Source: Bacteroidaceae bacterium (lineage in GTDB: Bacteria; Bacteroidota; Bacteroidia; Bacteroidales; Bacteroidaceae). Taken from it: DNA of 61,116 nt. How positions within the stretch are numbered: the first letter of the stretch is position 1; each line of letters begins with the position of its first letter. This document shows positions 25,874 to 57,196 of the stretch, in pieces. The DNA is taken from assembly GCA_963634425.1 (NCBI GenBank), contig CAVHCL010000128.1:8751-69866 (forward strand), given 5' to 3'. Under the pieces are notes generated by a model. That model was not told the DNA's origin and searched no databases. It saw only the letters and a program-made list of their open reading frames with translations. A program made the translations under genes and the position numbers.

Positions 25874-25926
25874 TCTAGAGAACCTAGAAGTTCTAGACTT
25901 TCTAGAACTTCTATAAAATCCATAAA
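25874..25926. repeat. Phased 9-bp palindrome array #1 (6 units)
   Basis: CTAGA/CTATA/CCATA cores start at 25876, 25885, 25894, 25903, 25912 and 25921, an exact 9-bp period. The 8-mers are CTCTAGAG, ACCTAGAA, TTCTAGAC, TTCTAGAA, TTCTATAA, ATCCATAA. The array begins 5 nt after the stop at 25869. Confidence 0.9.
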
Positions 25927-25991: not shown

Positions 25992-26066
25992 CCACGCACA
26001 AAAGTCGCCTTTTTAACTTTTTCTTACCCAAAAGTTAATAAAAATTAAAAAGGCGATATTGCGTGG
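25992..26066. repeat. Imperfect 22-25-bp inverted repeat around a 28-nt AT-rich spacer
   Basis: Left arm CCACGCAcaaaagtCGCCTTTTTAA (25992-26016). Right arm TTAAAAAGGCGatatTGCGTGG (26045-26066). Two perfectly complementary blocks (7 bp and 11 bp) are separated by an internal bulge. Confidence 0.7.
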
Positions 26067-26093: not shown

Positions 26094-26124
26094 TTTGGAG
26101 GAAAGGGATTTTGTCATATCTTTG
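26094..26124 (+). promoter_or_regulatory. Bacteroides-type promoter P1 for the pilus-like locus
   Basis: TTTG at 26094-26097, a 19-nt spacer, then TATCTTTG (TAnnTTTG) at 26117-26124. The first ATG of the downstream gene lies at 26181. Confidence 0.55.
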
Positions 26125-26180: not shown

Positions 26181-27589
26181 ATGTCACACTCTGCCTTACA
26201 TATCATAGCAATGGTAGCCCTTTTGTTTGTGTACGACACTAGACGAGCGGGGGGGTATTTGCGCAGTCGACAAATACGGCAGACAGAACGTTCGTCACTG
26301 ACTCACATCCTATAATCTTCGTCGTAAACAGAACGGACATCAGCCCCAATGACGAAACGTGGCTGACAGACACTTTGTGCGCAAGGTTGCAGGCAATAGA
26401 GCCGCACGGCATCATAGTGGGGCGTGCGGCGACTTCGCCCGACGGACCGTACGGCAACAACCGTATGCTGGCGGAGGGACGGCGCAAGACCGTGGATCGC
26501 ATACTGCGGCGGTTGGGCTACAATACCGAAATCATACATTACGACGTGGTGGCGGAGGACTACAGTCTTCTGCTCACCATGATGCGTCTCCACCATGATG
26601 CGGACTGCGACGTGGTGGACTCGCTTGTCTCGGCATATGCGCACGAGGGCGCACACTTGAAGGCTGAACTGAAAGCAACCGACGGTGGACGGCTATGGCA
26701 GAGACTGCTGCGCGACTACTTCCCTTCGTTGCGTGCGGTGCGCATCATACCGATGGACGGCAGACTGCTGGTGGACGGAACACTGATGCCGGACTTGCAG
26801 CAGAAGGAGTTCCCTCAGACTGCGGGCACGGCACGGGCGGAACGCATAATTGGCGGAGAGCCGGCACTCCACCCTCTCACGGACTTCTCACGTCACACTG
26901 CCTACGGCTCTGCGCTACGTATGCCACGCCGCGAACTGCTGTCGGTGAAGACCAACCTTCTGTTCGACTTCGCCTATATGCCAGGCGGATACGATCGTAT
27001 CTGCCCAATCCCCAATGTCGCCATTGAGTTCTATCCACTCCATGGGCACTTCACCTACGGCGCATCGTTCGACTGTCCATGGTGGCAAGATTACGACGAA
27101 CACAAGTTCTTCCAAGTGCGCAACTACCAGTTGGAAGTGCGCTACTACCTGAAGAGCGGAGACGTGGACTACGGCAACGGGGCGGCATTCCGCGGACTTT
27201 ATGCGCAGGCTTACGTCCATGCCGGACTTTTCAGCATCTGCTTCGACGAGAACCGTGGATGGGAGGGCGAGGGCGCAGGCGCAGGACTTGGACTGGGCTA
27301 TGCGCTGCCTCTCACACGCACCGGACACTGGCGGTTGGAGTTCGGAGCGCAGTTCGGGGTGTTCTTCTCGAAATACGATCCTTACCAGTACGGGAGTGTC
27401 GTCTACCCCGGCAAACTCGATGGGTACTACTATAAATTCAACAACTTCGGCAACTTCTTCACACGGCGGCAACACCGCTTCACGTGGTTCGGCCCCACCA
27501 GGGTGGGCATCACGCTCACCTACGACTTGTTGTACAGACGCAGGGCGAAGAAGGGGACGAGCTTAAAGAGTTGGGAGGTGCAGAGATGA
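26181..27589 (+). pseudogene. OmpA-like/DUF3868-DUF3575-type outer-membrane protein gene, out of frame at a G7 tract as sequenced
   Basis: The ATG at 26181 gives MSHSALHIIAMVALLFVYDTRRAGG, then stops 34 codons later. The long frame (to 27589) is open from 26243 but has no ATG or GTG before the TTG at 26375. One extra G at 26249-26255 would join the two as ...RRAGGVFAQSTNTADRTFVTDSHPIIFVVNRTDISPNDETW.... The C-terminal half (LLSVKTNLLFDFAYMPG...IEFYPL...) is DUF3575-like. Confidence 0.7.
26249..26255 (+). repeat. G7 homopolymer at the frame junction
   Basis: The sequence ...gagc ggggggg tattt... contains seven consecutive G. Confidence 0.95.
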
Positions 27590-28761
27590 ATGCTGTGCCG
27601 CATATATGTGCTGCGGCACACAGGTGCGCTGCGGTTCTGTTCCCACTCGCAGCGGCGGTGGTGTCAGGATGCGAACGACGACCTGAACTGAATCTCGACT
27701 ACTACGAGAACGTGGTGACGAGACTACCTGTGGTGGAACTGCGCCTCGACGTGTTCTGGAACTACAGCATGGAGGGGGCAGGCTTGTATGACTGGCGTAA
27801 CGAGTGGTACTACGGATGGGACGAGGACGACAAGAAACTGTTCGGGGAGATGGGATACACCAAGCCTTCGTCGTTCCAGATACGCCGCTACTACACCGGT
27901 TCCACACCTTATGCGGCACACACCAGCGTGTCCTCCGACATCATCAGCGGATATGTCTACTCAGCGGCGTTCGATTGGGGCTTCTGGGACTTGCTGGCGT
28001 GGAACGAGGTCGCCACCGGGGACGGCGTGCAGAGCCTGCACATCGACGAGCAGTCCACGCTTGAGTACGTGACAGCGTACACGGGACAGACCATGAACGC
28101 AGCACGCTATCAGGCACCCAAGTACACAAGGTCGTTCTACCAGCCCGAGGCTCTGTTCTGCGCGTACATCGAAGGACTGAAAATCAACAAAGAACTTGAC
28201 GGATTTGAGTACGACCACGAACGCAGCGTATGGGTGAGACAGTTGGATATGCAGCTCTACCCCGTCACATACATATACCTGACGCAGGTGGTGCTGCACC
28301 ACAACAACGGCAGGGTAACCGGGGTGGACGGCAACGCCAACCTCTCTGGAATGGCGAGGAACGTGAACGTGAACACCGCAGTGGCGGGGACAGAGCCGGT
28401 GACCGTGCACTACTACGTGCGCTTCAAGAAGAACTGCGACATGAAAGGCGAGGACGTAGACATAGTGGGCGGACGGCTGATGACCTTCGGTATGTGCAAC
28501 GTCAACGGCAGCCGTGCCACGGAGGCTGTGGACGACGGAGTACGTCACTACATGGACGTGGACATGCAGTTCAACAACGGCATGGACTCCACCTTCGTGT
28601 TCGATGTCACCGAACAGGTGCGCAAACGGTACAAGGGAGGTGTGCTCACCATGGAACTGGACATCGACACCGTAAGAATCCCCACACGCAAGGGAGGCTC
28701 GGGCTTCGACGCAGTGGTCAAAGACTTCGAGGACGGAGGCACCCACGAGTTTGAGATGTGA
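27586..28761 (+). CDS. Putative pilus anchor lipoprotein (Mfa2/FimB- or DUF5119-like)
   Basis: The ATG at 27586 overlaps the upstream stop (ATGA). Lipobox ...AAVVSGC. Trp/Tyr-rich beta-type sequence. Its position directly after the DUF3575 gene and before the pilin genes matches Mfa-type operons. The family assignment is tentative. Confidence 0.55.
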   Translation: MNAVPHICAAAHRCAAVLFPLAAAVVSGCERRPELNLDYYENVVTRLPVVELRLDVFWNYSMEGAGLYDWRNEWYYGWDEDDKKLFGEMGYTKPSSFQIRRYYTGSTPYAAHTSVSSDIISGYVYSAAFDWGFWDLLAWNEVATGDGVQSLHIDEQSTLEYVTAYTGQTMNAARYQAPKYTRSFYQPEALFCAYIEGLKINKELDGFEYDHERSVWVRQLDMQLYPVTYIYLTQVVLHHNNGRVTGVDGNANLSGMARNVNVNTAVAGTEPVTVHYYVRFKKNCDMKGEDVDIVGGRLMTFGMCNVNGSRATEAVDDGVRHYMDVDMQFNNGMDSTFVFDVTEQVRKRYKGGVLTMELDIDTVRIPTRKGGSGFDAVVKDFEDGGTHEFEM

Positions 28762-28818: not shown

Positions 28819-30549
28819 ATGAAAAAACATTATTTGTATCTTGCCACAGCACTCGCACTCGCAAGCTGTGCAAACGACGACTACTTAGACGGCACATCTC
28901 CGTTGTCTACAGGCGACGGCTACATCTCCTTCAGCATGAGCACGCCAAATGCGACACGTGGAGACCAACAGCTTACTGGTAAAGACGCCGCAATTGCCCT
29001 CAACAACGAGTTCATCGTGTGGGGTGAGAAGAACGAAGCAGACAACACTGCAACTAAAACAGAAGACCTCGTTTTCAAGAACTACCGTGTGCAGTATAAA
29101 GAAAATACCAACAACACTACTACCAGCAACACCGCAGGTTGGGAGTATGTGGGTCTCACACCTTATGAAAGCAGCAAAGTGTCGCCCTCAATCCATAAAA
29201 ACGCGAACGCTAAGCAAACCATCAAGTATTGGGAGTTTGGTAAGACTTATACTTTCACGGCTGTGTCGGCATATCAATCGGACATTACTAATGGTAATGT
29301 GAAGATAACAAAGACAGAGGGTTCAACAACCTTGGCTTCCAAAGTCAAGGGCTACACCATCGTGCTGACCCAAGGTGCTAAAGCGACGGATATTTTTGTT
29401 GCTGACCGCAAAGAGGTTAAATATGAAACAACTGCACAGTCCGTTTCTGCTGTTCAGATGCAGTTCCGCAACTTCCAGTCAAAGATACGCTTCGGTTTCT
29501 ACGAGACTGTTCCTGGATACAATGTGCAGATTACCGGGGTGAAGTACGACACCAAAGCTGATTACGTAACAACTGCTTTCGGTGTTGACGGCAAGTTCGT
29601 ACAAGTTCCTACAGGGACAAGCGACAACGACAAACTTACTTACACCGTTACCTATGACACTAACAACAAGCCTGTTGTGGATGTCACAACAGGGAGTAAC
29701 ACAGCGACAAAAAGCTATGAGGAGTTCGGCAGCTACGTCTTCAGCAAAGACCTTGGTACAACTGCAACTTCTGATGTTGTCTATGATAAGGAGAATGGTG
29801 CATACAGCTTAATCCTGCCCAATACCAACAATGATACTCCGATGTCATTTACGGTTTCCTACAAGTTGATTTCCGAGGACACAGGGGAGGAGATAACTGT
29901 CACAGACAAAAAAGTGACGGTGCCCGCCGCATACTGTAAGTGGAAGCCCAACTTCGCCTACACCTATCTCTTCAAGGTTAGCGACCAATCAACAGGTCTC
30001 TACCCCATCACCTTCGACGCTGTCGTAGAGGCTGACGAAGTTAGCAAACAAGAGACAATTACCGAAGTCGGCGAACCAAGCATCACTACGTTTGCCGTTA
30101 AGTCTGATGGCAAGACAGTCGTAGTAGACCAAGATGAATATCAAGGCAATAATACTATCTATGCCACAATTAACACGGATGGCGGTATGACAAGCTCTAA
30201 CACCAAACTTTATACGGTGACAGCGACGAGCTATGCTTCTGGCATCACCGAGGCTTCAGTTGCCAACTGTCTGGCACACGGAAAGAAAGGCAATGATACA
30301 GCTCCGACTACTTGGACAGCAACAGACCTCAACAATGGTGTATTGACGGTAACGGCTGTTACGATCAGCTCAGATGGAAGTTCGACACCAGCGTTCGTAG
30401 ACAATGTTCCTTCTGAAGATGGTAACGGAACACGCACAGTCAACGCCCTCAAGTGGACTGCAACTGCAAGCACTGTTTACGCAGTAGAGTACACCAATGG
30501 TGGTAACAAGACCTACAAGATTGTTAAGGTAGGTACTGCTGAGCAATAA
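28819..30549 (+). CDS. Type V pilin (fimbrillin/Mfa1-like lipoprotein), candidate major stalk subunit
   Basis: Lipobox LALASC. N-terminal strand plus Arg site GYISFSMSTPNATR/GD. Motifs shared with the next two genes: FRNFQSKIRFGFYETVPGY and YCKWKPNFAYTYLFKVSD...GLYPITFDAVV. Confidence 0.75.
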   Translation: MKKHYLYLATALALASCANDDYLDGTSPLSTGDGYISFSMSTPNATRGDQQLTGKDAAIALNNEFIVWGEKNEADNTATKTEDLVFKNYRVQYKENTNNTTTSNTAGWEYVGLTPYESSKVSPSIHKNANAKQTIKYWEFGKTYTFTAVSAYQSDITNGNVKITKTEGSTTLASKVKGYTIVLTQGAKATDIFVADRKEVKYETTAQSVSAVQMQFRNFQSKIRFGFYETVPGYNVQITGVKYDTKADYVTTAFGVDGKFVQVPTGTSDNDKLTYTVTYDTNNKPVVDVTTGSNTATKSYEEFGSYVFSKDLGTTATSDVVYDKENGAYSLILPNTNNDTPMSFTVSYKLISEDTGEEITVTDKKVTVPAAYCKWKPNFAYTYLFKVSDQSTGLYPITFDAVVEADEVSKQETITEVGEPSITTFAVKSDGKTVVVDQDEYQGNNTIYATINTDGGMTSSNTKLYTVTATSYASGITEASVANCLAHGKKGNDTAPTTWTATDLNNGVLTVTAVTISSDGSSTPAFVDNVPSEDGNGTRTVNALKWTATASTVYAVEYTNGGNKTYKIVKVGTAEQ

Positions 30550-30556
30550 ACTAAAC

Positions 30557-30606
30557 CGTTCCGCAAGGAACGTCAAAGCCGGGTGGGGTTCGACTCCCCT
30601 CCCGGC
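30557..30606 (+). terminator. Two tandem hairpins after the first pilin gene (attenuator or terminator; the second is tRNA minihelix-like)
   Basis: Hairpin 1: CGTTCC-GCAA-GGAACG (30557-30572, GNRA loop). Hairpin 2: GCCGGG-T-GGGG [TTCGACT] CCCC-T-CCCGGC (30578-30606), with a T-loop-like 7-nt loop. Confidence 0.55.
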
Positions 30607-30653: not shown

Positions 30654-30685
30654 TTTGTGAGAATTACTGGATAGTCGTATCTTTG
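30654..30685 (+). promoter_or_regulatory. Bacteroides-type internal promoter P2
   Basis: TTTG at 30654-30657, a 20-nt spacer, then TATCTTTG at 30678-30685. This is the same -7 octamer as P1. It lies 132 nt upstream of the ATG at 30817. Confidence 0.55.
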
Positions 30686-30816: not shown

Positions 30817-32823
30817 ATGTATAAGAGAATAGGAGTATATATATTGGCGGTGGGCCTGACGGCCTGTGTGGACGACTACTACAACGGGGGCTACTCTGCT
30901 CCCAACGGAGGAGGCATCTCTTTCGTCAATGCAGTCGTGCCTTTCACCCGTACCGGGAAGACCGGCAAGAATGCCGCCGATATGCTTGGAAACAGGTTCT
31001 TCGTCTATGGCATAAAGAACGAGAGCTTAGGCGCAGACGCTCTTGCCGCCGAAAACCTTGTGTTCCAAAACTACAAGGTGACGTACTCCGACGGCACCGG
31101 AGGTTCCTCCGTGGACAACAGCAGCGGATGGGGATATATAGGCAACGCCCTTTCCTACGACGAGGCTGCCAACCTGCGGGACAACATCGGCACTGCCGCA
31201 CAGGCCGTGAAATACTGGGACTACAATGCCGCCGACTATACCTTCTATGCGTTTGCCATCGCCAACAACGACCTTGAGGACGGCAAGATGAAGGTGACGA
31301 AGAACACCGGCAGCACCTTTGACACCTATCGCAACGGCTACACCATAGAGATGGCTGCGGATGCCGAGCCTACAGACCTCTATCTTGCCGACCGCATACA
31401 CATAACGGCATCCTCCAACACCGACCAGACACAGAGCAACGCCTACGGCGGCAAGGTGAGCTTCAACTTCCGCAACGCCATGGCGAAGGTGCGCGTGGGG
31501 ATGTACGAGACCGTCCCCGGCTATTCGCTCACCATCGACGCATTCCGCACTGTCGACGAGACAATGCCTTCGTTCGGTGACATGACGACGGAGAACACCG
31601 GTCAGTTCGCCGCCAACCTGAGCCACAACACACCGTACAAGGAGGGTACTATGACAGTGACGTACACAGACCGACACGCCACGGAAGAGAACATACCAGT
31701 GGTCGTTTTCGGCGGGACGAAGGACAATGTGCTCACTCTCGGCGACAACCTCCGGCAAGGGACGGTGCTCGGCGACAACGCCGCCGACGTGGTATACGAC
31801 AAGAGCGACGACGGCTATACCGCCATATATCCCATGGAGTACAACGCCCACAGTCTGAAGGTGAAGATGGACTTCACCCTGAAGTCCAAAGTGGGCGAGA
31901 CCATAGAGGTGAGGAACGCCACGGCGGAGGTGCCGGCCGCCTACTTGAAGTGGAAACCGGGATGTGCCTACACCTACATCTTCAAAATCAGCGACCAGAC
32001 CAACGCCACCGTAGGCAGCCTCACTGGGCTCTACCCCATAACGTTCGACTGCGTGGCAGTCAGCGACGGCACAGGAGAGGAGGAGAAGATATCCAACACA
32101 GGCAATGATGTCAACATAGTCACCATGGGCTACAACCCCGACTTGCGGCTCGTCACCGTGGGGCATGATGACTACAATGCCGGCAACACCGTCTATGCGT
32201 CATTCGTGGACAACAACACCCTCGTGACCGCCACATCGTCAAACACGAGACTCTTCGTCGCCACCACCACCGACCCAGAGAACTACCCCGTCACGCAAGC
32301 CAACGTGTCGACGTACATCAACAGCTACACCGCCGACAACACCCTCGTGGACCAACCTGTGACGGTGTACGGGCAGACTATAGCCGACGACGACTTCGTG
32401 AACGAGGTGCCTATGGGCGACGGCACCGATGCCATGCGTTCCTTGCCGGCAGTGAGATGGACGGCGGAGAGACGCGTCTACGCCGTGGAGTACACCACCT
32501 CGGACTCCAAGAGATATTACAAGATAGTGAAGGTGGACGGCTACGACGGACAGACCTCCGGCACGCTGTCGCTCAATCCTGCTGTAATAGAAAACTCCGG
32601 CGGCACAATAACACCGTCACTCACTGTGGACGGCATCACGGCATCCAATGCCGATGTCACGTACGCCCTCGACGCCGATGTGCCGTCGGGAGTGACCGTC
32701 AACGACAACGAGTCGGAGAATGTAACCATCACGGTGCCCGGCCAGACAACGGCAGGCACCTACACCATCATCGCCACCTACAACCGCAGGACGTACAGGA
32801 CATCCTTCAAGGTAAACCAGTAG
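30817..32823 (+). CDS. Type V pilin (fimbrillin/Mfa1-like lipoprotein), paralog 2, with a C-terminal Ig-like extension
   Basis: Lipobox GLTAC. GGISFVNAVVPFTR/TG. FRNAMAKVRVGMYETVPGY. YLKWKPGCAYTYIFKISD...GLYPITFDCVAV. Confidence 0.75.
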   Translation: MYKRIGVYILAVGLTACVDDYYNGGYSAPNGGGISFVNAVVPFTRTGKTGKNAADMLGNRFFVYGIKNESLGADALAAENLVFQNYKVTYSDGTGGSSVDNSSGWGYIGNALSYDEAANLRDNIGTAAQAVKYWDYNAADYTFYAFAIANNDLEDGKMKVTKNTGSTFDTYRNGYTIEMAADAEPTDLYLADRIHITASSNTDQTQSNAYGGKVSFNFRNAMAKVRVGMYETVPGYSLTIDAFRTVDETMPSFGDMTTENTGQFAANLSHNTPYKEGTMTVTYTDRHATEENIPVVVFGGTKDNVLTLGDNLRQGTVLGDNAADVVYDKSDDGYTAIYPMEYNAHSLKVKMDFTLKSKVGETIEVRNATAEVPAAYLKWKPGCAYTYIFKISDQTNATVGSLTGLYPITFDCVAVSDGTGEEEKISNTGNDVNIVTMGYNPDLRLVTVGHDDYNAGNTVYASFVDNNTLVTATSSNTRLFVATTTDPENYPVTQANVSTYINSYTADNTLVDQPVTVYGQTIADDDFVNEVPMGDGTDAMRSLPAVRWTAERRVYAVEYTTSDSKRYYKIVKVDGYDGQTSGTLSLNPAVIENSGGTITPSLTVDGITASNADVTYALDADVPSGVTVNDNESENVTITVPGQTTAGTYTIIATYNRRTYRTSFKVNQ

Positions 32824-32826
32824 AGA

Positions 32827-34017
32827 ATGAACGAGGGAACATTCCATACAAGCATACTCCCCTCCGCGGCCGCACTGCTTGCCGTCCTTGCGGCAGCGAC
32901 GCTGTGCTGCTGCTCCGACGACGTGCCCGACAACCCAAGCGGCAAGGAATACAGCATCTCGTTCAACACTGGCAGCGGCACAGAACAGGCGACACGCGCC
33001 GGTTCGCAGACGGGACTGCACACCCTCGGCCACGACCAGATAACGGTCTACGGCTACAAGACACTCAACGGCATGGTACAGAACGTGATGCCTGGCTACA
33101 CCCTCAACTACACAGAAAACTCCGCCAACTCTTCCACTACCAACACCACCGGCTGGGAGTACGTGGGACAAGGCACCGACTACTTGGGACAAATGCAGGA
33201 GATAAAATACTGGGACGGCAACAGCAGCGACTACCGCTTCTTCGCCGTGCTGCCCAACTATAAGAACAACCTGCGATACAACGGCAGCGTGATAGACGCG
33301 AGCACAGAGGTGTCGGCAGACGGCAGCTTCAGCATGGTGTTCGACGGACTGGAGTACATAACCCACACTAAGGACGGCAAATACAAAACCAGCGACGGCA
33401 CCGAGGTGGCAGAGAAGAACATCCCGATGTACGGTGCGTTGTGGCAGGGCAACCCTGCCAAGTGTTACGACACCCCGGTACAGTTGGTGTTTGTGAAACC
33501 TTACGCCCTCGTGCGCTTGGAGTTCGAACGCCCCGAGGGAACGTCAACGACACAGCTCGGCAAAGATGACGACGCAACGCATAACATCACCTTCGGTCCC
33601 AAGGACGGATCCGAGCTTACCGGCGACGGCTCAGTGAATGTCAGCTGGGACATGACAGGCAGCCGTGAGACAGCTACCGCCACGGCAGGAACGGTGACTC
33701 TGCCCACGATGACCCTCGACCCTCTGGAGCTCACCAACCAGAACGAACGCTATCAGGCATGGCCGGAATATCTGATGATTCCCACGTCCAGCACCGTGGA
33801 CTTCCTCTGCACCGCCTACGTGTACACCGACAACAGTTCGGGAGATGACTTCGACGAGCGCACAGCCGTCATCCCTGCGGAGTACATGAAGTGGAGACCC
33901 GGTTACCTGTACACATACGTGTTCAAAATAACAACGAACAACAAACTCGAGTTCAGTCATGCCGTGGAGGTGTACACCAAGTGGCAGGCAGGGTACGTGG
34001 ACACCACCACATGGTAA
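32827..34017 (+). CDS. Type V pilin-like lipoprotein, paralog 3
   Basis: Lipobox-like ATLCCCS. YSISFNTGSGTEQATR/AG. YMKWRPGYLYTYVFKIT. Only a 3-nt gap separates it from the previous gene. Confidence 0.7.
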   Translation: MNEGTFHTSILPSAAALLAVLAAATLCCCSDDVPDNPSGKEYSISFNTGSGTEQATRAGSQTGLHTLGHDQITVYGYKTLNGMVQNVMPGYTLNYTENSANSSTTNTTGWEYVGQGTDYLGQMQEIKYWDGNSSDYRFFAVLPNYKNNLRYNGSVIDASTEVSADGSFSMVFDGLEYITHTKDGKYKTSDGTEVAEKNIPMYGALWQGNPAKCYDTPVQLVFVKPYALVRLEFERPEGTSTTQLGKDDDATHNITFGPKDGSELTGDGSVNVSWDMTGSRETATATAGTVTLPTMTLDPLELTNQNERYQAWPEYLMIPTSSTVDFLCTAYVYTDNSSGDDFDERTAVIPAEYMKWRPGYLYTYVFKITTNNKLEFSHAVEVYTKWQAGYVDTTTW

Positions 34018-35085: not shown

Positions 35086-38000
35086 ATGCAACGCAAGATA
35101 GTCGGTTTACTGATATTTACAATCCTGTCGCTGCTCTGCCCCCCGGGCGGCGCGGCACAAGAGGTGCGGTACGTGTCGAAGGGAGGAGCCTATTCCAACG
35201 ACGGCAAGTCGTGGGAAAAGGCGAAGTCCAACATACAAGACGCCATCAACGACCTCGTGGACAACGGACTCACGGGCGAGGTGTGGGTGGCTCATGGCAT
35301 CTATACCCCTACGGAGAGCACCGAGTCGACAGGCGGCAGCACCCTCTACATGTCGTTCAAAATACCAGCCGGCATCAGTGTGTACGGCGGCTTCAAAGGT
35401 GACGAGACCTCCAAGGAAGCACGCGAGGAGAACGCCACCAAGTCCTTCGGCAACGTGTACAAGTACTCCACCATACTCAGCGGCGACCTCTCCTCCTCGG
35501 CGGAGTTTACATGGAACACCACCAGGGAACGGTGGGAGACCTCGTTCTACGGCAACTGCTACCACGTGGTGTTCTTCGCCACCAATGGCTTTGACGCCAC
35601 AGGGCGCGCCAAGCCCAACGGCGGAGGCAAGCAGTCGGCACTGCTTGAGGGCTGTGTCATAGAGCACGGTAACGCTTACAACTCCGACCTGTCTGGCCGG
35701 CCGCACAACGCCTACGGAGGCGGAGTGTATATGGTGGAAGGCTCGTGCCTGAAGAACTGTCTGGTGCGGCAGTGCGTGTCGTACCGCGACGGCGGAGGCG
35801 TCTATATGGACGGCGGAGGCTACATAGAGCATACTGCCGTGATGGACTGCCAGACTGTGGGCATAGGCATCTCCTACGGTATGGGCGGCGGAGTGTGCAT
35901 GGACGGACCCGACACTTACAGTGCGTCCTACACACCCATGGTTATGCGTCGCTCGGGAGTCTTCGGATGCGTGGGACGCATGGGCGGCGGAGTGGCGATA
36001 GTAGCCAACGACACCGACGGCGACAACAAGTACAAGATAGCGTGCAGTGCCGTAGTGGTGGCAAACAACACTGCCACCAACGAAGCCGGAGGCATATACA
36101 TGAACAGCGGCGGTGTCATAACGCAGGCAACAGTCGTCAACAACAAATGCAACGGTGCGGGCATCATAACCAACGGCATAGCCAACGGACGCTCTGCCGG
36201 CGTATACTGCCGCAACAACGCCATAGTGTCCAACTCCGTGCTGTGGGGAGGTGTGTGCAGTGCCAACAACGACATACAGTATGCCACCTCGCGCTCGGGC
36301 AGCGGCACAGAACTCAGCCCCAACATCATGTACACCTCGCTCAGCCAGTCGGACTACACGGACTGGAGCGGAGTGATAAAGGACAACGTGACGAAGCTGT
36401 CGAAGTACAACAGCAGTGCCGACGGTACCGCATACGCCTCCGAGGGTTATCCGTTGTTCTCCAACCCCACGCCCAACGCCGGTTATGTAAGCTCCGCACA
36501 GAGAACGCAGTTCATCTACGACGGTACAAGCAGCATAGCCGACGGAGTAACCCTCTACGACAACATGGGAGTGGAGGTCAACGCCGACAACATCAAACTC
36601 GGCACTACCTACTATACAGACGTAGCCATGCAGACCGTAGCAGTGGAGGGACGTGACTACACATACCTGGGTGCCGCCTACGACTTCCAGCCGCTGTCAC
36701 GCTCCTCGCTCAACCACCGTGGCGTGCTCACCATCGACCTCGACCGTTACGGACGGACTCCCGCCTATGAGATAGACAAGGACGTGATGGGAAAGAGTTT
36801 TACCCCACGCCCTACCCTCGGTGCGTACCTCACCACCCACACCACCATAGAGCCGCAGACCGTCACCGCCTCGGGAAAGACAACGGTCAACTTCTACGTA
36901 GCCCCCAATGACGACGGCGGCACAGAGTACACCTCCATAGGCTCAAGTTGGAACCAGCCGATACGTTTCTTCTCCGATGCCATGGCGTTCATCAAGGAGC
37001 AGAGCTACCCGTCAGCCACCACCGTCAACGTATATGTGAAAGAGGGAACGGTGAACAATACCAACACCTCCGCCGTAGGACGTATACGCACAACGGACAT
37101 AGGCATACCGGGCAATGTGAACATCTACGGAGGATATTCCTCCGACAACACCGGCACCGACCTTGACAAACGCAGCCCTACCGCCTGCCTTACCATCATC
37201 ACCGGCGACGCACAGGACGACTATGCCCTCAACGTATCCCACCTACTAACGTTCGACGGCACGGAGAACACTGTGCTTGACGGCTTCGCCATACGCAATG
37301 CCAACGCACGCGGCACGGAGAAGATAGAGGGCACACCCGTGACGGTGGGGGCTGCCATGACGTTCAACAACGCCACAGGTGTGAAGATACGCAACTGCAG
37401 CGTGGCTGGACACACCGCCAGCGAGGGTGCCGCCGCCGACATGACGGACTCGGAGGTGTACTTTGAGAACTGCATCTTCCACAACAACGAGAGCCGCACA
37501 CTGGATGCCGACGGCAATGCGGTGTCCAACACCGGCAACATCGTGGTGCGCACAGGTTCCACCGCCAGTTTCTCCCACTGCAACTTCATACGCAACGTGG
37601 GCAACGCCATCGACAGCTACGGCACGGTGAAGGTCGTCAACTCCGTGTTCTACGGCAATATGTCCGAACCGCTCGAAGACACACGCGGCAATGAGGACAA
37701 GGCTCTCACGGCGGTGCGTCTCTTCAACGGAGGCACGTTCACCGGCGACCACAACCTCTTCGACTCCAAATCGGCGGCCTTCATCGCCAACAACAGTCTG
37801 GACGGCACCAACGAGGCTATCCTCACCTACGCCTTCAGCAGCACGTCCACCACATACCCGCGTTTCATGAACCCCACGAAGAACGCCGGGGTCTCCCCAT
37901 CGGGCAATGTCACCTACTATGGGAAGGCGACATCCTTCATGCCGCACAACAACAACCCGATGGTAAACCGTGCCTCCACGGTGGACAGCGACGGCGCAGA

Positions 38001-41000
38001 GACCGACGACCATGCCGAATGGGGCACCGACATGACTGGCACTGTGACCCGCGACTACGGCGGTCTGCCCGACATAGGAGCCATAGAGAACCACGAGAGT
38101 GCCGTCGCCGACGAAGGCGAGAAAGCTTATCCCGACGGACAGAAAGCCTACGGCAAGGTATTGTATGTGCGCAACTACCGCAACGACGACGGCACGGTGG
38201 ACAACAGCACCACCGACCGCGACGGTTATTCATGGAGCAGAGCCATAAACGGCAACGCCACCTACAGCGGAGTGAACGGCTTCCAATATGCCCTCAATAT
38301 GGCAAACACCCTGTGGAATGCCGACCAAACGACACAGCACGAGGTGCACGTGGGCGCGGGCACGTACACCGCCAACCTCACATGGAAGGAAGGCGTGAAT
38401 GTGAAAGGCGGCTATCCTGCTGAAGGCAACCCCGGCGAGAACGAGCGCAGCATCTCCAACACCAAGGCTGAGCACATGACCGTCATCAACGGCAACGGCA
38501 ACGGACGCGTGCTTACGCAATATGCCAATTTCTCCACCGCCGCCGTCTTCGAGGGCTTTACCATACAGGACGGCTACACCACAGGGACTAATTATGGTGC
38601 CGGAGTGTATCTCCTGAGTGGCGGAACGCTGAAGAACTGCCTTGTGCAGAACAATACGTATAGTGCATCTTCAAGAAACACAAATTATTGTCAAGGCGGT
38701 GGAGGCATCTACATGAATGACGGTTCTATTGTCAAGAACTGCAAGATAATGAAGAACTACGTCTATGCCAACAACTACCAGTCATTCTTCGGGGGCGCTG
38801 GTGTGTATGCTGCGGGCGGCACACTCATCAACTCTCTCATTGTGGAGAACACCACAGACAGTCGGAAAAACAATTTGCTCGGTGCCGGTTTGTACATATA
38901 TCAGACCTCCAGCCTTTACAACTGCACCATTGCTTATAATGTGGCTGTAAGTGCGGGGCCGGATGGCGACTATGCCGCTACAGGCGGCGTGTGGGATGCG
39001 GCAGCAAAACATCAAGGTGGTGGAAAATACATCAATCAGTCTCGTTTCTACAACTGCATTATTTGGGGTAACTATGCCAATGGTAGAACAGCAGAGAACC
39101 TGATACAGGTCGGTATGTCCGGTTTCAGTGACCAAGCCGGAAATACAAATGATGCCTTTCATACATGTTACAGTTCGGCATGGTCAAAGACGTATGCTTC
39201 TGACGATGCTTCCGATGTCAACAAAGTGATGATTGTTGGCACGGGTACAGGTTCCGCTTCCAATTATCTTGCGTTCTATAACAACAGCAAAGCCAACGAG
39301 CCTTTCGTTCGCGATGACTACGACAATACAGACTACTCGCTGAAAGCCACCGCCACACAGTGTATCAACAAGGGATCGGAATACCAGGAGCTCACCAACC
39401 TTGACATCACAGTTGACATCAACGGCGAAGAACGCATACAGGACTGCACCATAGACAAGGGTGCATACGAGTACAACCAGTCGCTCGACATCAACCCTGA
39501 GATAATCACCACTACTGGCTCTACGAATAACAAACGTGTCTTTTACGTCACCCCCGACGGTCGTGGCACGGCATCTGCCGACAGTCCCGCCAACGCCGCC
39601 TGCGCCTCTAAGCTTCAGAAGGTGCTCGATGCAGCAGGACGCTACAAGTACAACTATCCGTCGGACACCGTCATCGTGAAGGTGGCAAACAGCGCATCCT
39701 TGGCTGCCGCAGGAGAGAATTTCCAGTACTATGCTTGCCGTACCACCGACGAGGGCGACCAAAGCGCACGTGTATGGTCCATCATGGTGCCGCGCGGAGT
39801 GGAGGTGTGGGGCGGATACACCGACACCTATACCTCTGACGACGACAACGGCTTCTACACCAAGGACTCGGCGGGAAACACCGCTGACAACCGCGACATC
39901 ACGGGCAACCCCACATACTTCGATTCCTACTACTACAACAAGAGCGAAAAACAGTACACATACACCTATCACGTGGTGACATTCACCGACCGTGTGTTTG
40001 ACGGCGAGGGCTACCCGTACGAGGAAGGCGACACCATTGGAGAGCCCAGCACATGGAAGGAAGGTGACAAATATATGTCGATGAGTGAGAAAACCGCCGA
40101 CCGCGCCGTCATAGACGGGCTGTTCGTCACCGGAGGCAACGCCGACGCACAAGTGCCGAACTCCGCCAACGCCACAGCCGACATCAACCAGTATGGCGGA
40201 GCCGCCATAGTCACCGACTATGCCCACGTGCGCAACTGCATAGTGCGCGGCAACAATGGCACCTACGGAGGAGCCCTCGCACTCACCCACAACGCCCTCG
40301 TCTCGGGATGTCTCATAGACCAGAACACCGCCGACTACGGCGGTGCGGTATATATGTTTGAGGAGGGCACAACCCTGTCCGACGGAACTGTCGTCGACAC
40401 CAAGTCCTCAGGCACCGCCGTCGACGAGAACATGGCTCATGTCTACACATCCACCATCGTCAACAACACCGCCAACAAACAAGGCGGCGGCATCTGGTTC
40501 GGACAGAGCAGCGACGACATGAACATCCGCGTCAACTCCTCGGTGATTTGGCAGAACAACAGTGTCAACCAAGCTAATGTGTCGGGACTCTACAACGCCA
40601 CCAAGGCCGCCGACGACCCGTTGACGACGATAGAGTTCTACCCCTTCGCCTTCTGTGCCGTGCAGAACCTGCTCGTGCCAGGACTCAACAACATACAGCT
40701 TGGAAACCTCAACTCCTCGGGTGTGCGTTTCGCCGCCAAGGGCAACGCCGATGACGACCACAACACCATTGCCAAGGAAAGCACGGACGACGACACACAC
40801 GGGAAGTACGACGACTTCGGCTACTATGCCCTCACTGACTACTCCTCACTGATACGCAACGGTATGCCCAGCGAGCAGTACTCCGCATTGGTGACAAGTG
40901 CTGGTCTGTCGGCATTCGACTTCGCCGCCGAAGACCGCCTCGTGTCCACAGGGAGAAACCGCACCAGCATAGAGATGGGAGCGCGTGCCTTGGACAAGAT

Positions 41001-44000
41001 ACTGGACAGCCGACAACTGATGCTGCGTATCTTCGTGGCAAGATCGGAAGACATTAACATGGATGCCGCACAGACCATGATGAATCTTGCCGCCACGGCG
41101 GCCGAAGGCAGTGACGAGGAGTACTACAGCCAGGAGGGCTCATCGTTCGCCTTCCCCATGCAGAGCCTGCAGGACGCACTTGACTACATAATAGAGGCGC
41201 GCTCGCTCAACGGGGTGAAGACGGGGCTCAACCAAGAGGGCTCCAACAACCTGCCCTTTGAGATATGCCTCGGCAGGGGCACATATTATCCCAGGCACAA
41301 CATAGACAACGTACACATCAACTCCTCGGGAAACAGTTTTGCCATACCCGAGGGCGTGAGCGTGTACGGAGGCTTCGCCATAGACAACCCCGACAGGGAG
41401 AAGTCTTACTTCGGCAGATACTACAAGGAAGGCGACAACCCCGCCGGCTATACCAATGTCCTGTCCGACAACGTCAAGTCGGTGGTAGAGACAGACAACG
41501 ACACCTTAGTGAGCATAGGAGGCAGTGACGGCTACGCCATAGACCAGCTGCCCATAAGCAAGTTGAAGCCACGCCGCCGGACGCTGGACAACAACGGCAA
41601 CAACATCATAGAGCCGTGGGAGTTCGAGAATCAGACCATACTCTCGGGCGACGTGAGCTACCAAGCCGCCAACGGAAGCTATCATGTGGTGACGCTCGTC
41701 GCCGACCAGAACGTGACGGGCATGCTGCCCAAGGCCGCCGAACCGACAAGCGACGCTTTGGATTACAGCGTCTACACGACAGCCAACGGCGAAGGCTCCT
41801 ACGCCTATGAGCAGGGGCAGGACATAGTGCTTGACGGACTGCAGATAGTAAGCGGCCATGCCTTACACTATACCGAAGGCTCCACCGACTATACGAACAT
41901 GTACAACCACTACCTCGGCGGCGGAATCTTCGTCAACGGCAACCGCTACTGCGACGACTACAACAAGAAAACTTCACTCGCCGCCGAAGGGTTCGGCACC
42001 ATAGAATACAAGCACAGCGGCATAAGCGAATCTGTGGGCTACCGCAACATACCCCTTATCATTGCCAACTGCAAGTTCACCAACAATACGGCAGGAGGTG
42101 GAGGCGCGCTCTGCTCCAACGGTCTGGTGAACATATACAGCAGCGTATTCGAACAGAACCGCTCTGTCAGCGGCTGTGAGACGCTGCTTGACATTAACGG
42201 CGACGAGAAGGAAGTGGCATACGCCGGCATAGGCGGAGCAGTGCTCGCCACATACCAGCTGAGAGTCTACAACACGCTGTTCGCCAACAATGAGGCGTAC
42301 GACGAGAGATTGAACGAGAAGCCTACCGAGTTCAAGAGGATGCTGGCCGACGAGACACGCTCACTTTTAGGCGGCGCGGGCGGTGCGGTGTATGTGGGAC
42401 GCTTTGGCTTCTTCCACATCCTCAACTGCGACTTTGTGCGCAACCGTGCCAACGCATACCCCGTGATGTTTACCATGAACCCCAACCGCGACTTCACAGA
42501 CGGACGCAACGGCGGCATAGGAGAGGGCAACCCTCTGCGTCCCACCACGACATACTACAACCAGTTTGTAAACACCCTGTTCTGGGGCAACGACATCAAC
42601 GACGAGATGAGCAAGAAATACGACAGTGTCAACCCGCTGTTCAAGTTCAACTCGCGTCTCTTCTGCAACTACGCTCCCGGCGAGTTCTCCGGCATCTACT
42701 CCGCTCCCGACTTCACCGACGACACCAAGATACCCTCCGACCTGACGGCTCTCGACGGCAACAGCACATCACGGCACTCCGACTTCGGCGAGACGGCATG
42801 GTACTGCGCTTATGAGTACGGGCGCGGTACGACACCGCACAACATCACGGACATGAGAAACCTTGGATTCCTCCCGCACGTTTACGCCCGCGACATGATA
42901 CACTCCGAAGGCGAGAAGAAAGGGGCGGACACCTACCAGAACTGCAACATACGCCTCAGCTCGGAGAACTCTGACCTCGAAGGTCCCAACTTCGTGAACC
43001 CGTCGCTGACTGCGGGCTACGACGGTTACTACGAGTCCGCCGACTGGAGTCCGGCACGCCTCTCCAACCTCGTGGACAACGGAGCTGGAAAGATAGCCCA
43101 AGAGATTACCCTCGAGAATGAGGTCTATAAGACTTCGTTCAAGGAGTACACGTCTGAAAACATCCCCTCACGCTCTATATATTACAATAATGGTAATGCC
43201 GACGGCTACACCACCGAGACCGTAGGCGACTACGACACCGAGGGAGTCTACACCACCACACGTGTGCTGAACACCTACGACAGAAACCGCACGTATCTGC
43301 CAGTGGGTGAGATGACGTATATGGAAAGCTCAGCCACGGGACAAGCCCTGTACCGCATCTCGTACGACCCAAACCCCACACACAACCAGACATACATAGA
43401 CATAGGCGTGTACGAGTATCCGCACACCGAGCTGCAGTATACCACTACCGGTGACGAGGTGGACATCCTTTGGGTGTCGCCGTTTGAGAAACCCGACAAC
43501 GGTCTGCCCAACGGCAGCGCATGGAGCCAGCCCACCAGCGACCTACAGCGTGCCATAGAGACACTGCTCGCCAGCCGCAACGGCCACCGCAAGGAGATAC
43601 GCCTGATGGACGGGCCGTTCACTCCCATCTACAACATAGAGGACAAATTGGCGTTCACCATTGACACCAAAGCCATCAACGAGTCGGTGACCATGCCAGT
43701 GAAGGCGTACGAAGAGGATGGTAAAACAGTGAAAGAATATGACACAGGCAAGGGCGTGGTGTCCCTCACCATAAAAGGCGGGTACAGCCGTGAACTCAAC
43801 AACGTGTACAACCCTTTGGAGTATCCCGCCGTCATACGCCAACAGGCACGATCCCATGCTACATCCGACAGGTGGAACTACCTCTTCTATATCCACGACG
43901 GCACCCAGCGCTACGGCTACAACACATACAACGAGGCGAACGGCTACGGCAACTACGCCGACAGCGACGGCGAAGGTTACAGCAAGACCGTGAACACCAT

Positions 44001-47000
44001 ACCGCTGCACATCGACGGTGTGACACTCGTCAACAACCAGGCCAACAAGGATGTCAACGGTGCCGCCATCTTCTACGGTGACCTTGCCGACGACATCACG
44101 GCTTCCACACCAGCCCACGTCTCGATAAACACCTATTACACTGACGCGGAAAAGTCCGAAGAGTCCGAGGAGCCTACACGCTACTACAACCGCACCGTGG
44201 ACAAGTACTACACCGATGCCACGTACCAGGTGGTGTCGGAGACGGAGACACCGTTTGTCTCTTACAAGTATGCGGAGACCACTGCCAACAAGATTGTCAT
44301 CAGCAAGAGCAAGATAATGAACAGCGGTTCCTATGCCGACGACGACCACTCCACCTGCGCCGTGTACATAGGAAAGAACGGAGGCAATGCGTTGCTCTAC
44401 AACAACGTGATGCACAGCAATACAGGCAATCCGCTTGTCTCGGCAGTGCCCACCACCATCGTCAACAACACATATGCCCTCAACAAGGGACGCGTAGACC
44501 TCAACGGCGAGAACACCAGAGTGTCGTCGCTCGTCATCAACCAAGACGACAACGACGGCAACTACGACCCCGACGGACCTATGCTTGCGCCTCACCACCA
44601 GCGGCGCGCCCCATCGGCTGCCACTGGCTCGGCAATATTCAACAGCGTGTTCTGGCGCAACAACAACGACGGTGTGCAGTTTGTACTGCCAGGGTTCGTC
44701 AGCGCACAGAAGTCGGGCTCCATATTCTCGCACAATGCCGTTACGGGGTACAGCACCGATGTGAGCGACTACTCCCTACCCGACATACCCGACCAGAACT
44801 ACAACGTGGGACTCTCTGACGAGAACAGCGACATCATCAACGGTCCCAACTTCGCAGACCCTAAACAGGAAGCCACGCTGGCAGACGACATAGAGTTGCG
44901 CAACTTCACTCTGCTGCCCTCACTGCGTCTGCTCAACAAAGGCAACAACACCCTCTACAACGACAACGTTATCAAGAACCCCGACACGTATAATATATAC
45001 GACCTGGCGTGGATGACCACCACACGCACCGATGCCGGCGGCGAGCAACGCTTCGTGTACGACATAGACCTCGGTGCATATGAATATCAGAACAACCTCA
45101 ACCGCATCATCTACGTCAACCCCAACGTGAGTGCCACGGGACTGGGCAACTCGTGGGCCGACCCTGTGGCTTACGGCAACCTGCAGGCAGCCATAGACCT
45201 TGCCGCGGTGTATCATGTGAACAACGTAGACGAAGAGGCGTACGTGTTCGTCAAGGGAGCCGGCACAAGCTCCGCCGGACTGCACCTCGGCGAGTCGGTA
45301 ATCATGCGCGACGGCGTGAGCGTGTACGGAAGCATACTCCCCACACGCACGGAGGACTGCCCATACACCACAACCTCCAGCAACGGCATACGTGAATATG
45401 CGCAGACCGAAATAGACAAGTACGTGGCAACCGTCACCGCCGAGCGCGGAGGACTTGCCGACCCCACCGCCGGCACCACCACCGTCAGCGGTATCAAGAC
45501 TCCCAGCTCCACGACGTTCAACAACACCAACGCCGAGATAGTGTCCGTAGTCGACGGCTTTGCCGTCACTGCCACCAACAGAAAGAACCCCTCGGGCACT
45601 GTCGCACAACCGGTAATAAACGTGCAGCCGTTTAACTCCGACGGACGCGTGGCTCTGCGCAACATCATAGTACACGGCAACGACTTGTCCGCCCAACGGC
45701 TCACCGACCTCGCCACAGTGGACAATGCCCTCATATATGAAGCCCTGTTCCGCGACAACAAGGTGGACGACACTGGATGCCATCTGCGCATCGGGCGCAA
45801 CGGCTATGGGGTGAACCTCACCGTAGAGGGCAGAACAGTGGGAGCAGACGGGAATGTCACCTACAACGGTACCGACAGCAAGGACGGAGACCATATCTTC
45901 AACTCGCTCGTCAACTATACCGGACACCCTGCCACAGAAAACACCCTCTCGGGCTATAATTACAAGGTGAGCGCCCCCAACCTCAACTACCAGCTCACAG
46001 AGATGTCAACACACATAGACCAGTGCGAAGCAGTCAACCCGATGAAGGATGTGCCGACACTGAAGCAGTTCATCAACTACGACACCGACCGCGACCTCCT
46101 TGGCAACCTGCGTCTGCTCAGGGGCGTGAGCACCGAAGACAAGGTAGACCGCGGTGCATTCGAGACATGGCGTGTGGACCAGGACGTTGTCTGCACGTCG
46201 AAGGATGCTGACGGCAACCTCACCAACTACTACCCACACGTCGGTTCGGTAGTCTACATCATGCAGGGCAACAGCCTTGTGATGGAGCAGTATGAGACCC
46301 AAGCCGCCGAAGGAGTGACAACGCAGACCTCTGGCACCGCCTTGCGCCCTGCCTATCTGCTCGTACAGGACGGCGCGTCGCTCTACGGCAACGGCAACGC
46401 CGTCAGCGTGAGCTATGTGGGAGTGGAGCGGGAGACGAGCAAAGACGGCTCCATGGTGAGTCTGCCTTACGCCATGCAGTATGGGGGGACGGACATCGCC
46501 TCCAACGGTACGGGAGCTCCGGCATACTCTGCCGACGGCGTGCTGACACTCTCCGCCGACAAGGCCGGGACATATTCCTACAACGGCGTGGGACGCTCGG
46601 CATGGAACTCCACATTCTACAACACGGCTTCGCCGCAGTGGACAGAACTCACCGACGTGACGACCGACTCCAACAAAGGCATACTCTACAAATCTGCCGC
46701 CGACAAGCTCTACCGTTTCACTGCACAGGGCGATGCCGACAACATGGACTCCTATGTGTACACCGAGACTGCAGGCGAGATAAGCAAGACGGTGGAACTG
46801 CAGCAGTACGACGACCGTGTCTCCACCGACGGCGCTGCGGACTTCACGGAGAAGGAGGACATGGGATGGAACTGCATCGGTCTGCCTTGGCTCGTGAGTG
46901 ACTATGACACATCAGCGAAGGAGACTCTCAGCGGTGACAGCCACTACAACATGGACATACCTCACACCCTGTGGCTGTGGTATGACGGCAAGACATATCT

Positions 47001-47478: not shown

Positions 47479-47522
47479 TTCTAGAAGTTCTAGAGACTCT
47501 AAAAAATCTAGAAGATCTATAA
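47479..47522. repeat. Phased 9-bp palindrome array #3 (5 units, plus a degenerate unit over the stop codon)
   Basis: The 8-mers TTCTAGAA, TTCTAGAG, CTCTAAAA, ATCTAGAA and ATCTATAA start at 47479, 47488, 47497, 47506 and 47515, an exact 9-bp period. The array fills the 60-nt gap between the giant gene and the next gene. Confidence 0.9.
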
Positions 47523-47535
47523 AAACAACAAACGT

Positions 47536-57116: not shown

Positions 57117-57196
57117 CTATAGAAGGCTTAGAAGCTCTAGTGGCTCTAGAATACCTAGAGTTTCTATAGCTTCTAAGCCTTCTATAGCCTCTACAA
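57115..57196. repeat. Phased 9-bp palindrome array #4 (9 units)
   Basis: CTATA/CTTAG/CTAGT/CTAGA/CTAGA/CTATA/CTAAG/CTATA/CTACA cores start at 57117, 57127, 57137, 57146, 57155, 57164, 57173, 57182 and 57191 (spacing 10, 10, then 9 six times). The first unit overlaps the ackA stop codon. Confidence 0.9.

Follow-up and report, generated by a model that had tools for sequence, protein, structure and literature searches.

Phase variation of pili by a change of reading frame has a close precedent in Neisseria gonorrhoeae and Neisseria meningitidis, where work by Jonsson and colleagues from 1991 is said to have linked frameshift phase variation of pilus assembly and adhesion to a poly-G tract in the signal-peptide region of pilC. 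The subject of the present analysis is a comparable arrangement in a 61,116 bp stretch of DNA with 54% GC (from contig CAVHCL010000128.1; hereafter the window), in which a run of seven guanines, G7, puts the leading gene of an operon resembling type V pilus loci out of frame. Judging from the sequence, this G7 is probably the OFF allele of a slipped-strand contingency switch in a Prevotella-like Bacteroidales bacterium. As in pilC, a G homopolymer lies in the signal-peptide coding region of a gene for a putatively pilus-associated outer-membrane protein, a change of one G toggles full-length translation, and both ON and OFF alleles are found in natural populations. The two systems differ in phylum and in the type of pilus, type V here and type IV in Neisseria. 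Moreover, the protein concerned is not a tip adhesin or assembly factor of known role but a DUF3575 protein resembling an 'inverted OmpA', and its switching is putative.

Closer in phylogenetic terms are the Tsr/Mpi invertible promoters that switch surface loci in the Bacteroidaceae, as in the Mfa1-type fimbriae of Phocaeicola vulgatus (PMC12940148) and in B. fragilis (PMC12632263). These share with the window the bacterial order, the class of locus (type V pili) and the proposed outcome, a surface appendage that is stochastically ON or OFF, but they act through recombinase inversion of a promoter between inverted repeats, whereas here the reading frame would change at a homopolymer. A preliminary description of this DNA had remarked that Bacteroidales mostly use invertible promoters, which agrees with the literature searched (PMC12940148, PMC12632263, PMC11868660); for this order, a 2025 review of phase variation covers inversion systems only (PMC11868660).

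A further comparison is with the homopolymer contingency loci of Campylobacter, Helicobacter, Haemophilus and Bordetella, with poly-G or poly-C in 5' coding regions or promoters; in prokaryotic genes generally, homopolymeric tracts are biased towards the 5' end (PMC2831843, PMC6321876, PMC1891110). The likeness lies in G/C runs of 7-13 at the 5' ends of genes, in length polymorphism between close strains and in the surface-structure genes affected, and it extends to relatives of the window species that carry tracts in a promoter spacer (contig L010) and in upstream leaders. Those loci belong to Proteobacteria and Campylobacterota, however, whilst the present one belongs to the Bacteroidales. 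Our search for homopolymer or slipped-strand switching in Prevotella, Bacteroides and Porphyromonas returned nothing relevant from a literature whose coverage was incomplete, which is not proof of novelty; within that literature, no homopolymer on/off switch is described for Bacteroidales.

The G7 tract and its two reading frames

The G7 homopolymer occupies positions 26249-26255 of the window on the + strand. It lies in the c-region of a predicted signal peptide, in a pair of Gly codons, and is contained in codons 23-25 of the precursor. Lengths of G8, G5 and G11 are in frame; G7 is out of frame, at -1 relative to the full-length G8. The ATG at 26181 opens MSHSALHIIAMVALLFVYDTRRAGG, which is read through the tract and runs on to a TAA at 26313-15. 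Its product is a stub of 44 amino acids (aa; 26181-26315, + strand) comprising the n- and h-regions of a signal peptide and an out-of-frame tail, an arrangement that recurs in contig L029, discussed below. The preliminary description gave the coordinates of the tract exactly, recognised it as the meeting point of the two frames and identified the signal-peptide-like frame, which translation confirms, but it placed the stop of the short frame at 26283-85, where the codon is in fact ACA.

The DUF3575 frame (26243-27589, + strand) is open from 26243, directly after a TAG at 26240-42, to a TGA at 27587-89. As had been seen at the outset, it offers no ATG or GTG for its first 44 codons: the earliest possible start is the TTG at 26375 (codon 45), and neither ATG nor GTG occurs in this frame upstream of the first GTG at 26417. 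A block that is near-invariant amongst homologues (TDSxF..SRPIxFxVNK) sits upstream of both TTG 26375 and GTG 26417, so that an internal start would lose not only the signal peptide but also conserved mature sequence.

Adding one G, or removing two, joins the frames into a 469-aa protein reading ...RRAGGVFAQSTNT..., that is ...RRAGGVFA/QSTNT..., and G8, G5 or G11 read from ATG 26181 gives this 469-aa precursor with the signal peptide ...ALLFVYDTRRAGGVFA/QS. The fusion by G8 or G5 at a signal-peptidase-like site, already proposed, is upheld by homology across the junction. Homologues at 83% and 68% identity span the entire fused protein, and where the window has SALHIIAMVALLFVYDTRRAGG/VFAQ these intact relatives read MAALLFVQNAWGGVFAH (83% identity) and TALHNITMAVLLFLFGGQGLGAYAQ (68%). 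Since the similarity in the signal peptide crosses the tract, both frames were once one gene. The remainder of that gene is in good order. No further lesions are present in the 1.3 kb downstream of the tract, and comparison with the 83%-identical sister species gives a ratio of nonsynonymous to synonymous substitution rates (dN/dS) of 0.138 over 443 codons, with dS at 0.56. The lack of any other lesion and the low dN/dS both speak against an old pseudogene, which on this sequence evidence is unlikely.

The family assignment, too, holds up: Pfam DUF3575 (PF12099) matches residues 276-448 with 48.1 bits against a gathering score of 21.1. In the structure model, a confident N-terminal alpha/beta domain is connected by a disordered linker to a C-terminal small beta-barrel. 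When the model was used in a fold search, the N-terminal domain was found to resemble the OmpA-C/Pal/PorE-C peptidoglycan-binding fold and the C-terminal barrel to resemble Ail, OmpA-N and OprF-N. As modelled, the DUF3575 protein is effectively an OmpA with its domain order reversed. An OmpA-C-like domain and a beta-barrel both call for export, and loss of the signal peptide should therefore abolish function.

G7 is the only homopolymer of at least 7 within any coding frame of the window, and thus the longest there. Nowhere else in the 61 kb is a frame broken, although 5- and 6-base runs occur by the dozen, and the stretch is tiled by long intact open reading frames (ORFs), including those of 4,129, 1,177, 1,124 and 1,045 aa. 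Of the Gly codons in the window, GGG is used least (9.9%), and GGGGGG encodes only 2 of the 104 Gly-Gly pairs; given this rarity, the retention of the run in two species is not predicted by codon usage.

Tract length in the sister species and in a second lineage

The sister species, at 83% identity, is represented by six contigs (L001 and L004-L008), all of which carry a G run at the exact homologous position followed by the same TATTTGCGCA. Three ENA SPAdes contigs (L001, L004 and L005) and one Logan contig (L006) have G9, which is in frame, whilst a second Logan contig (L008) has G10, which is not. The sixth, a JGI contig (L007), has G12 but is chimeric and unreliable, its 2.2 kb upstream being unrelated DNA of ~30% GC with no match in the window, and we discounted it as an allele. 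The tally is thus four G9 to one G10, with one of five out of frame, and the comparison of tract length in relatives that the preliminary description had proposed as a check reveals differing lengths between samples of the sister species. L006 and L008, which derive from the public runs SRR19415682 and SRR19415688, are separated by 19 single-nucleotide polymorphisms (SNPs), and the G tract is their sole indel. The gene call in L008 resorts to an alternative start, giving MCKTHGGGVFAH. Relatives at 68% identity are without the tract and read GGAGGACAGGGACTTGG.

The structure of L007 deserves comment in its own right. L008 and L007 are identical across 3,650 nt, yet have G10 and G12, respectively. 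In L007, the ~30% GC DNA (1-2211), which contains a minus-strand membrane-protein gene, joins the DUF3575 gene exactly at G12, and the contig is probably a chimeric assembly formed at the homopolymer. We also considered an inversion between an upstream poly-C and the poly-G but rejected it, as by eye the reverse complement of the intervening DNA is unlike the upstream sequence of L007. The join serves as a warning for surveys of tract length that are based on metagenome contigs.

A second tract is found in P0043, a DUF3575 ortholog of ~52% identity from NCBI metagenome-assembled genomes, whose 90% cluster has 15 listed members. P0043 has G9 in the c-region of its signal peptide (...AALTY-GGG-KAYTSPPD). 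Tract lengths across the cluster were implied from the N-termini, with a check at DNA level for one 440-aa form (L029). Nine sequences read YGGGKAY, implying G9, and are in frame. So are single sequences reading YGGGEAY (implied G10, the run being extended by an A-to-G change), YGGEAY (implied G7, the YGGGEAY allele minus 3) and YGGKAY (implied G6). Out of frame are one 467-aa form beginning MGGGKAY, whose implied G10 fits only if 'AT' plus G makes ATG, and three 440-aa forms that begin at an internal Met (MEMTDS...), one of them that of L029.

The DNA of this lineage provides a direct comparison between L028 and L029, which come from the samples of the metagenome-assembled genomes GCA_963595215.1 and GCA_963630125.1. 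L028 has G9 and L029 has G8, and in the latter a separately called 34-aa stub ORF (MNMKRILLSVLVAALTYGGGKPILRLLTESTPMW followed by a stop) stands beside a truncated DUF3575 call, reproducing the configuration of the window. Across 3,368 aligned bases the two contigs differ by 53 SNPs and by two indels only, one in the G tract and the other in an upstream tract that is C8 or C9. Truncated forms make up 4/15 of the P0043 cluster but 0/40 of four sister clusters that lack the tract (Fisher p = 0.004); these comprise 13, 13, 4 and 10 sequences and include one upstream alternative start but no truncated member. Counting a third lineage, that of L015, where a C8 follows shortly after the signal peptide and is in frame, tracts in 5' coding sequence are present in three lineages: that of the window and its sister species, that of P0043 and that of L015.

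A proposed switch and its alternatives

How might such a switch operate? With G8, translation from ATG 26181 would yield an exported precursor; with G7, ribosomes would stop at 26313-15 once the stub had been made, and no exportable protein would result. Replication slippage would alter the tract by one or more Gs at a high rate, allowing lineages to flip between ON and OFF. The next gene in the operon, gene 2, does start by ATGA overlap (27586-89), as the preliminary description had it, and in the G7 state 1.27 kb of mRNA would go untranslated; given these two features, the OFF state would probably lower expression of genes 2 and 3 through lost translational coupling and Rho polarity. A separate promoter appears to serve the genes from gene 4 on, and polarity should stop after gene 3. 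The earlier suggestion that translational coupling could spread the effect downstream is plausible in view of the ATGA, but a promoter-like site and hairpins before gene 4 would probably confine its reach to genes 2 and 3.

Three readings of the tract had been put forward: a phase-variation switch, a pseudogene and a homopolymer error. The switch is now the best supported of these, on account of the length polymorphism of the homologous tract in the sister species and the independently evolved tract in the P0043 lineage. An old pseudogene is unlikely in view of the absence of lesions and a dN/dS of 0.14, and an assembly error turning G8 into G7 retains a small share of the probability. The locus has several features of a contingency locus, in that a homopolymer in 5' coding sequence sets the frame, ON and OFF alleles are both found (OFF in 1/5 and 4/15) and the gene is under purifying selection; length polymorphism with conserved flanks is seen in the relatives, the window species being a single sequence.

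Several considerations count against a switch. Length heterogeneity is observed in relatives, whereas the window's own species has one sequence: its gene call is a singleton cluster, exact look-ups of the window's flanking proteins and of P0001 gave no match, and nor did two metagenome scans, one for a conserved peptide after back-translation and one, aimed at the P0043 lineage, for a pattern spanning the tract, whilst the species-representative genomes include neither the window's species nor the sister species. G7 is shorter than the G9-G10 of the relatives and should slip less often. By count, the run is statistically not unusual, with 2 G/C runs of at least 7 observed in the window against ~5 expected under a first-order Markov model; what makes G7 significant is where it sits and how it compares with the relatives, rather than that it occurs at all. 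Most contigs of the relatives were assembled from metagenomes at low coverage, assemblers tend to err at homopolymers, and the cluster counts are of distinct protein sequences rather than independent isolates. Finally, polymorphism between samples amounts to hypermutability, which is short of reversible switching within a clone.

If the consensus has simply lost one G from a true G8, the organism has an intact gene that can be read constitutively. Indel errors arise most often at homopolymers, and G7 is the most error-prone site of the window; a single-base correction would suffice, in a gene that is otherwise perfect and has a dN/dS of 0.138, and contigs of the relatives often break or turn chimeric at such tracts, an indication that they are hard to assemble. 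We nevertheless consider an error unlikely, because the many other 5- and 6-base runs in the 61 kb have produced no frame break, the long ORFs included, because out-of-frame alleles turn up again in two other lineages, whose assemblies are independent (1/5 and 4/15), and because in-frame changes of 3 bases also occur, which simple errors would rarely produce. A real but one-off deletion in a G8 run, effectively fixed and devoid of adaptive switching, would make the gene a young pseudogene. That one genome of the species is known and that homopolymers are mutation hot spots regardless of selection both leave room for this, as does the plain fact that G7 is out of frame. The preliminary description had taken further disabling mutations downstream as the mark of a plain pseudogene, and the window gene has none. 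Strong purifying selection along the lineage, 1.3 kb without secondary lesions and a tract kept against codon bias in two species also make a young pseudogene rather improbable, and ON and OFF alleles side by side in two other populations suggest recurrent mutation in both directions, not one-way decay.

Two further explanations would leave G7 real and the gene regulated in another manner. Full-length protein might be made from G7 by recoding, either through a -1 ribosomal frameshift on G_GGG_GGG or through transcriptional slippage. G GGG GGG formally fits X XXY YYZ, and a -1 shift there would give ...RAGGVFAQ..., the same product as G8. However, a heptamer of G alone makes a poor shift site, RNA polymerase slippage would call for a longer run than G7, there is no stable RNA structure downstream (minimum free energy z-score 0.10), and the relatives, being in frame with G9, do not conserve the out-of-frame arrangement; we rejected programmed -1 frameshifting on the grounds of that z-score and those relatives, despite the presence of the heptamer, and regard recoding of any kind as very improbable. 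The other explanation is that an invertible promoter controls the locus and the G tract is incidental, a possibility suggested by Phocaeicola vulgatus and B. fragilis, in which Tsr inverts the promoters of type V pilus loci (PMC12940148). The best flanking pair of inverted repeats is only 12 nt long, with 10/12 positions complementary (83%), in a search that did not include the published Tsr motif, and the upstream genes encode a DUF5687 protein, an ABC ATPase and a methyltransferase, with no recombinase among them. With no inverted-repeat pair of useful length around the promoter and no recombinase nearby, this explanation was rejected, and we give it next to no weight.

Should the slipped-strand switch be real, a class of ON/OFF surface variation will have been missed in metagenomes, PhaseFinder-type tools looking only for inversion, and its OFF alleles will have been annotated as truncated genes or pseudogenes, as with the 400-aa and 440-aa calls here. 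In annotation, an N-terminally truncated DUF3575 call beside a tiny stub ORF would then signal an OFF allele rather than a gene without a signal peptide. DUF3575 proteins would gain a testable link to pilus display, and the piliation state of gut communities, animal and human, could be marked by tract length taken straight from metagenomic reads.

Promoter-like sites, further tracts and the pilus-like gene cluster

Established knowledge of Bacteroides promoters supplied the consensus for a regular-expression scan, which found a promoter-like site of the Bacteroidetes type upstream of the DUF3575 gene (26094-26124, + strand), with TTTG at -33, a 19-nt spacer and TATCTTTG at -7 (26117-26124). 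The -7 box is conserved in the sister species, where it reads TACCTTTG. From 25.8 to 51 kb, the + strand has only one other full match, at 30654-30685. Some 40 nt upstream of the -33 element is a 17-nt inverted repeat, 94% complementary and with an 18-nt loop (26005-26056; TCGCCTTTTTAACTTTT / AAAAATTAAAAAGGCGA), which could bind a protein or terminate transcripts that read through from upstream.

The window has a C5 (25989-25993, + strand) ~125 nt upstream of the -7 box, at the position of a second length-variable tract in the relatives, a poly-C. The aligned run is C13 in L001 (8-20) and C9 in L005 (120-128), contigs L001 and L004 break at it, and an analogous C8/C9 lies ~270 nt upstream of the ATG in L028/L029. 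In L010, a DUF3575 ortholog is preceded by a -33 TTTG and a -7 TAATTTTG box whose spacer is taken up by a G8 (1731-1738), a layout that by analogy is classic for phase variation of promoter strength; the contig from a second sample, P0010, ends before the promoter tract and gives no second length. G/C runs of 8-13 lie upstream of the promoter in L020, L024, L025, L011 and the sister species. Other G/C runs in relatives are placed in a hairpin loop, directly before other start codons and in mid-gene. Because several runs lie elsewhere in this way, and a proper intergenic background is lacking, the lineage-wide excess of G/C runs upstream of DUF3575 genes is suggestive and was not counted as evidence.

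These tracts raise the possibility, which we put forward tentatively, that across Prevotella-like Bacteroidales G/C homopolymers have evolved convergently into a second system of phase variation for type V pilus operons. Such a system would be multi-level, acting on the signal-peptide frame (window and sister species, P0043, L015), on the -33/-7 spacer (the G8 of L010) and on upstream leaders (C5-C13, G9-G10). The component that it gates would be DUF3575, the 'inverted OmpA', as a protein needed for pilus display, and it would work alongside, or replace, the recombinase-driven inversions regarded as typical of the order.

Some runs of this kind were recorded outside that set. The other long G/C run of the window is a G8 at 5598-5605, which is C8 when read on the minus strand. 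It immediately precedes the probable ATG (MARICIILLTFLLAG...) of a minus-strand amidase-like gene, in a gap of ~50 nt after a 1,124-aa gene; no frame is broken by it, but any variation in its length could influence how translation starts. A similar C7 immediately precedes the ATG of gene 2 in L016. At the related locus in L012, gene 2 and the pilin gene that comes next are separated by a GC-rich hairpin with a C9 as its loop (5504-5529; GGTACGGCG-C9-GCCGTACC), where tract length might matter for the geometry of a terminator or attenuator.

Downstream of the DUF3575 gene lies a series of lipoprotein genes on the same strand. Gene 2 (27586-28761, + strand; lipobox VVSGC), whose ATGA overlaps the DUF3575 stop, has a weak Pfam match to DUF5119 (E 6.4e-5; 23.3 bits, under the 27-bit cutoff) and had no match amongst PDB sequences; as an anchor subunit of the FimB/Mfa2 family it is at most a candidate. 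Gene 3 (28819-30549, + strand; LASC) is a paralog of genes 4 and 5, with which it shares the motifs GWEYVG..KYW.. and PAAY.KWKP..YTY.FK. Gene 4 (30817-32823, + strand; LTAC) encodes a fimbrillin-like lipoprotein paralog and has the promoter-like site at 30654-30685 upstream of it. The lipobox cysteines were read from the translations, as were those of gene 5 (LCCCSDD) and gene 6 (PMAC). GC-rich hairpins follow the stop of gene 3, ahead of the site at 30654-30685. With this second promoter-like site and the hairpins before gene 4, the first transcription unit probably consists of genes 1-3, gene 3 being the last.

Evidence for a pilus comes from gene 5 (32827-34017, + strand), a fimbrillin-like lipoprotein predicted to have the type V pilin fold. 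It has a precomputed PF13149 (Mfa_like_1) assignment and a homologue named 'fimbrillin family protein', although the Pfam scan of the window's proteins at E<=0.01 gave no match for it. Its model has a predicted local distance difference test score (pLDDT) of 81.5 and a predicted template-modelling score (pTM) of 0.78. Foldseek matched it to 4k4k, 4jg5, 3t2l, 3up6, 4rdb, 5dhm and 5nf4, which comprise Bacteroidales cell-adhesion proteins and the P. gingivalis proteins PG_0181 (4rdb), Mfa4 (5dhm) and Mfa3 (5nf4), with probabilities from ~1.0 for the top matches down to 0.69 for 5nf4 and low template-modelling (TM) scores of 0.2-0.44. Sequence-level family and PDB searches with genes 2-4 and with a giant ORF further along produced nothing usable. 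The models make 'pilus locus' a reasonable label, the role of DUF3575 in type V pili being putative.

That giant ORF (35086-47475) is a single intact frame of 4,129 aa in the same-strand cluster after the pilin paralogs; it has an N-terminal signal-like sequence, has no Pfam match at E<=0.01 and may encode a giant adhesin. It is followed by a 1,045-aa protein with sub-threshold matches to Big_2 and Big_3_5, which are immunoglobulin-like.

A few intergenic elements complete the inventory. Rfam and transfer RNA (tRNA) scans of the window returned nothing relevant, and ARAGORN found no tRNA or transfer-messenger RNA in it. In the gap after gene 3, the sequence GCCGGGT-GGGGTTCGACTCCCC-TCCCGGC (30578-30606) is like a minihelix of tRNA acceptor and T-arm and could be the remnant of a tRNA end, marking an old integration site, or a plain terminator hairpin. 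A sub-threshold match to the Pseudomonas small RNA P26 (25890-25953; 30.6 bits, the gathering score being 36) coincides with a palindromic hairpin region after the methyltransferase gene and is most likely due to nothing more than similarity between hairpins. Short repeats rich in TCTAGA, palindromic or in tandem, such as TAGAAGTTCTAGA/TCTAGAACTTCTA and five copies of TCTAGAAAA, lie in intergenic DNA just after gene ends at 25885-25916, 47480-47524 and 57162-57193 of the window, and also at 5070-5460 of L002, the 68% relative; an intergenic repeat or terminator element specific to the lineage may be involved.

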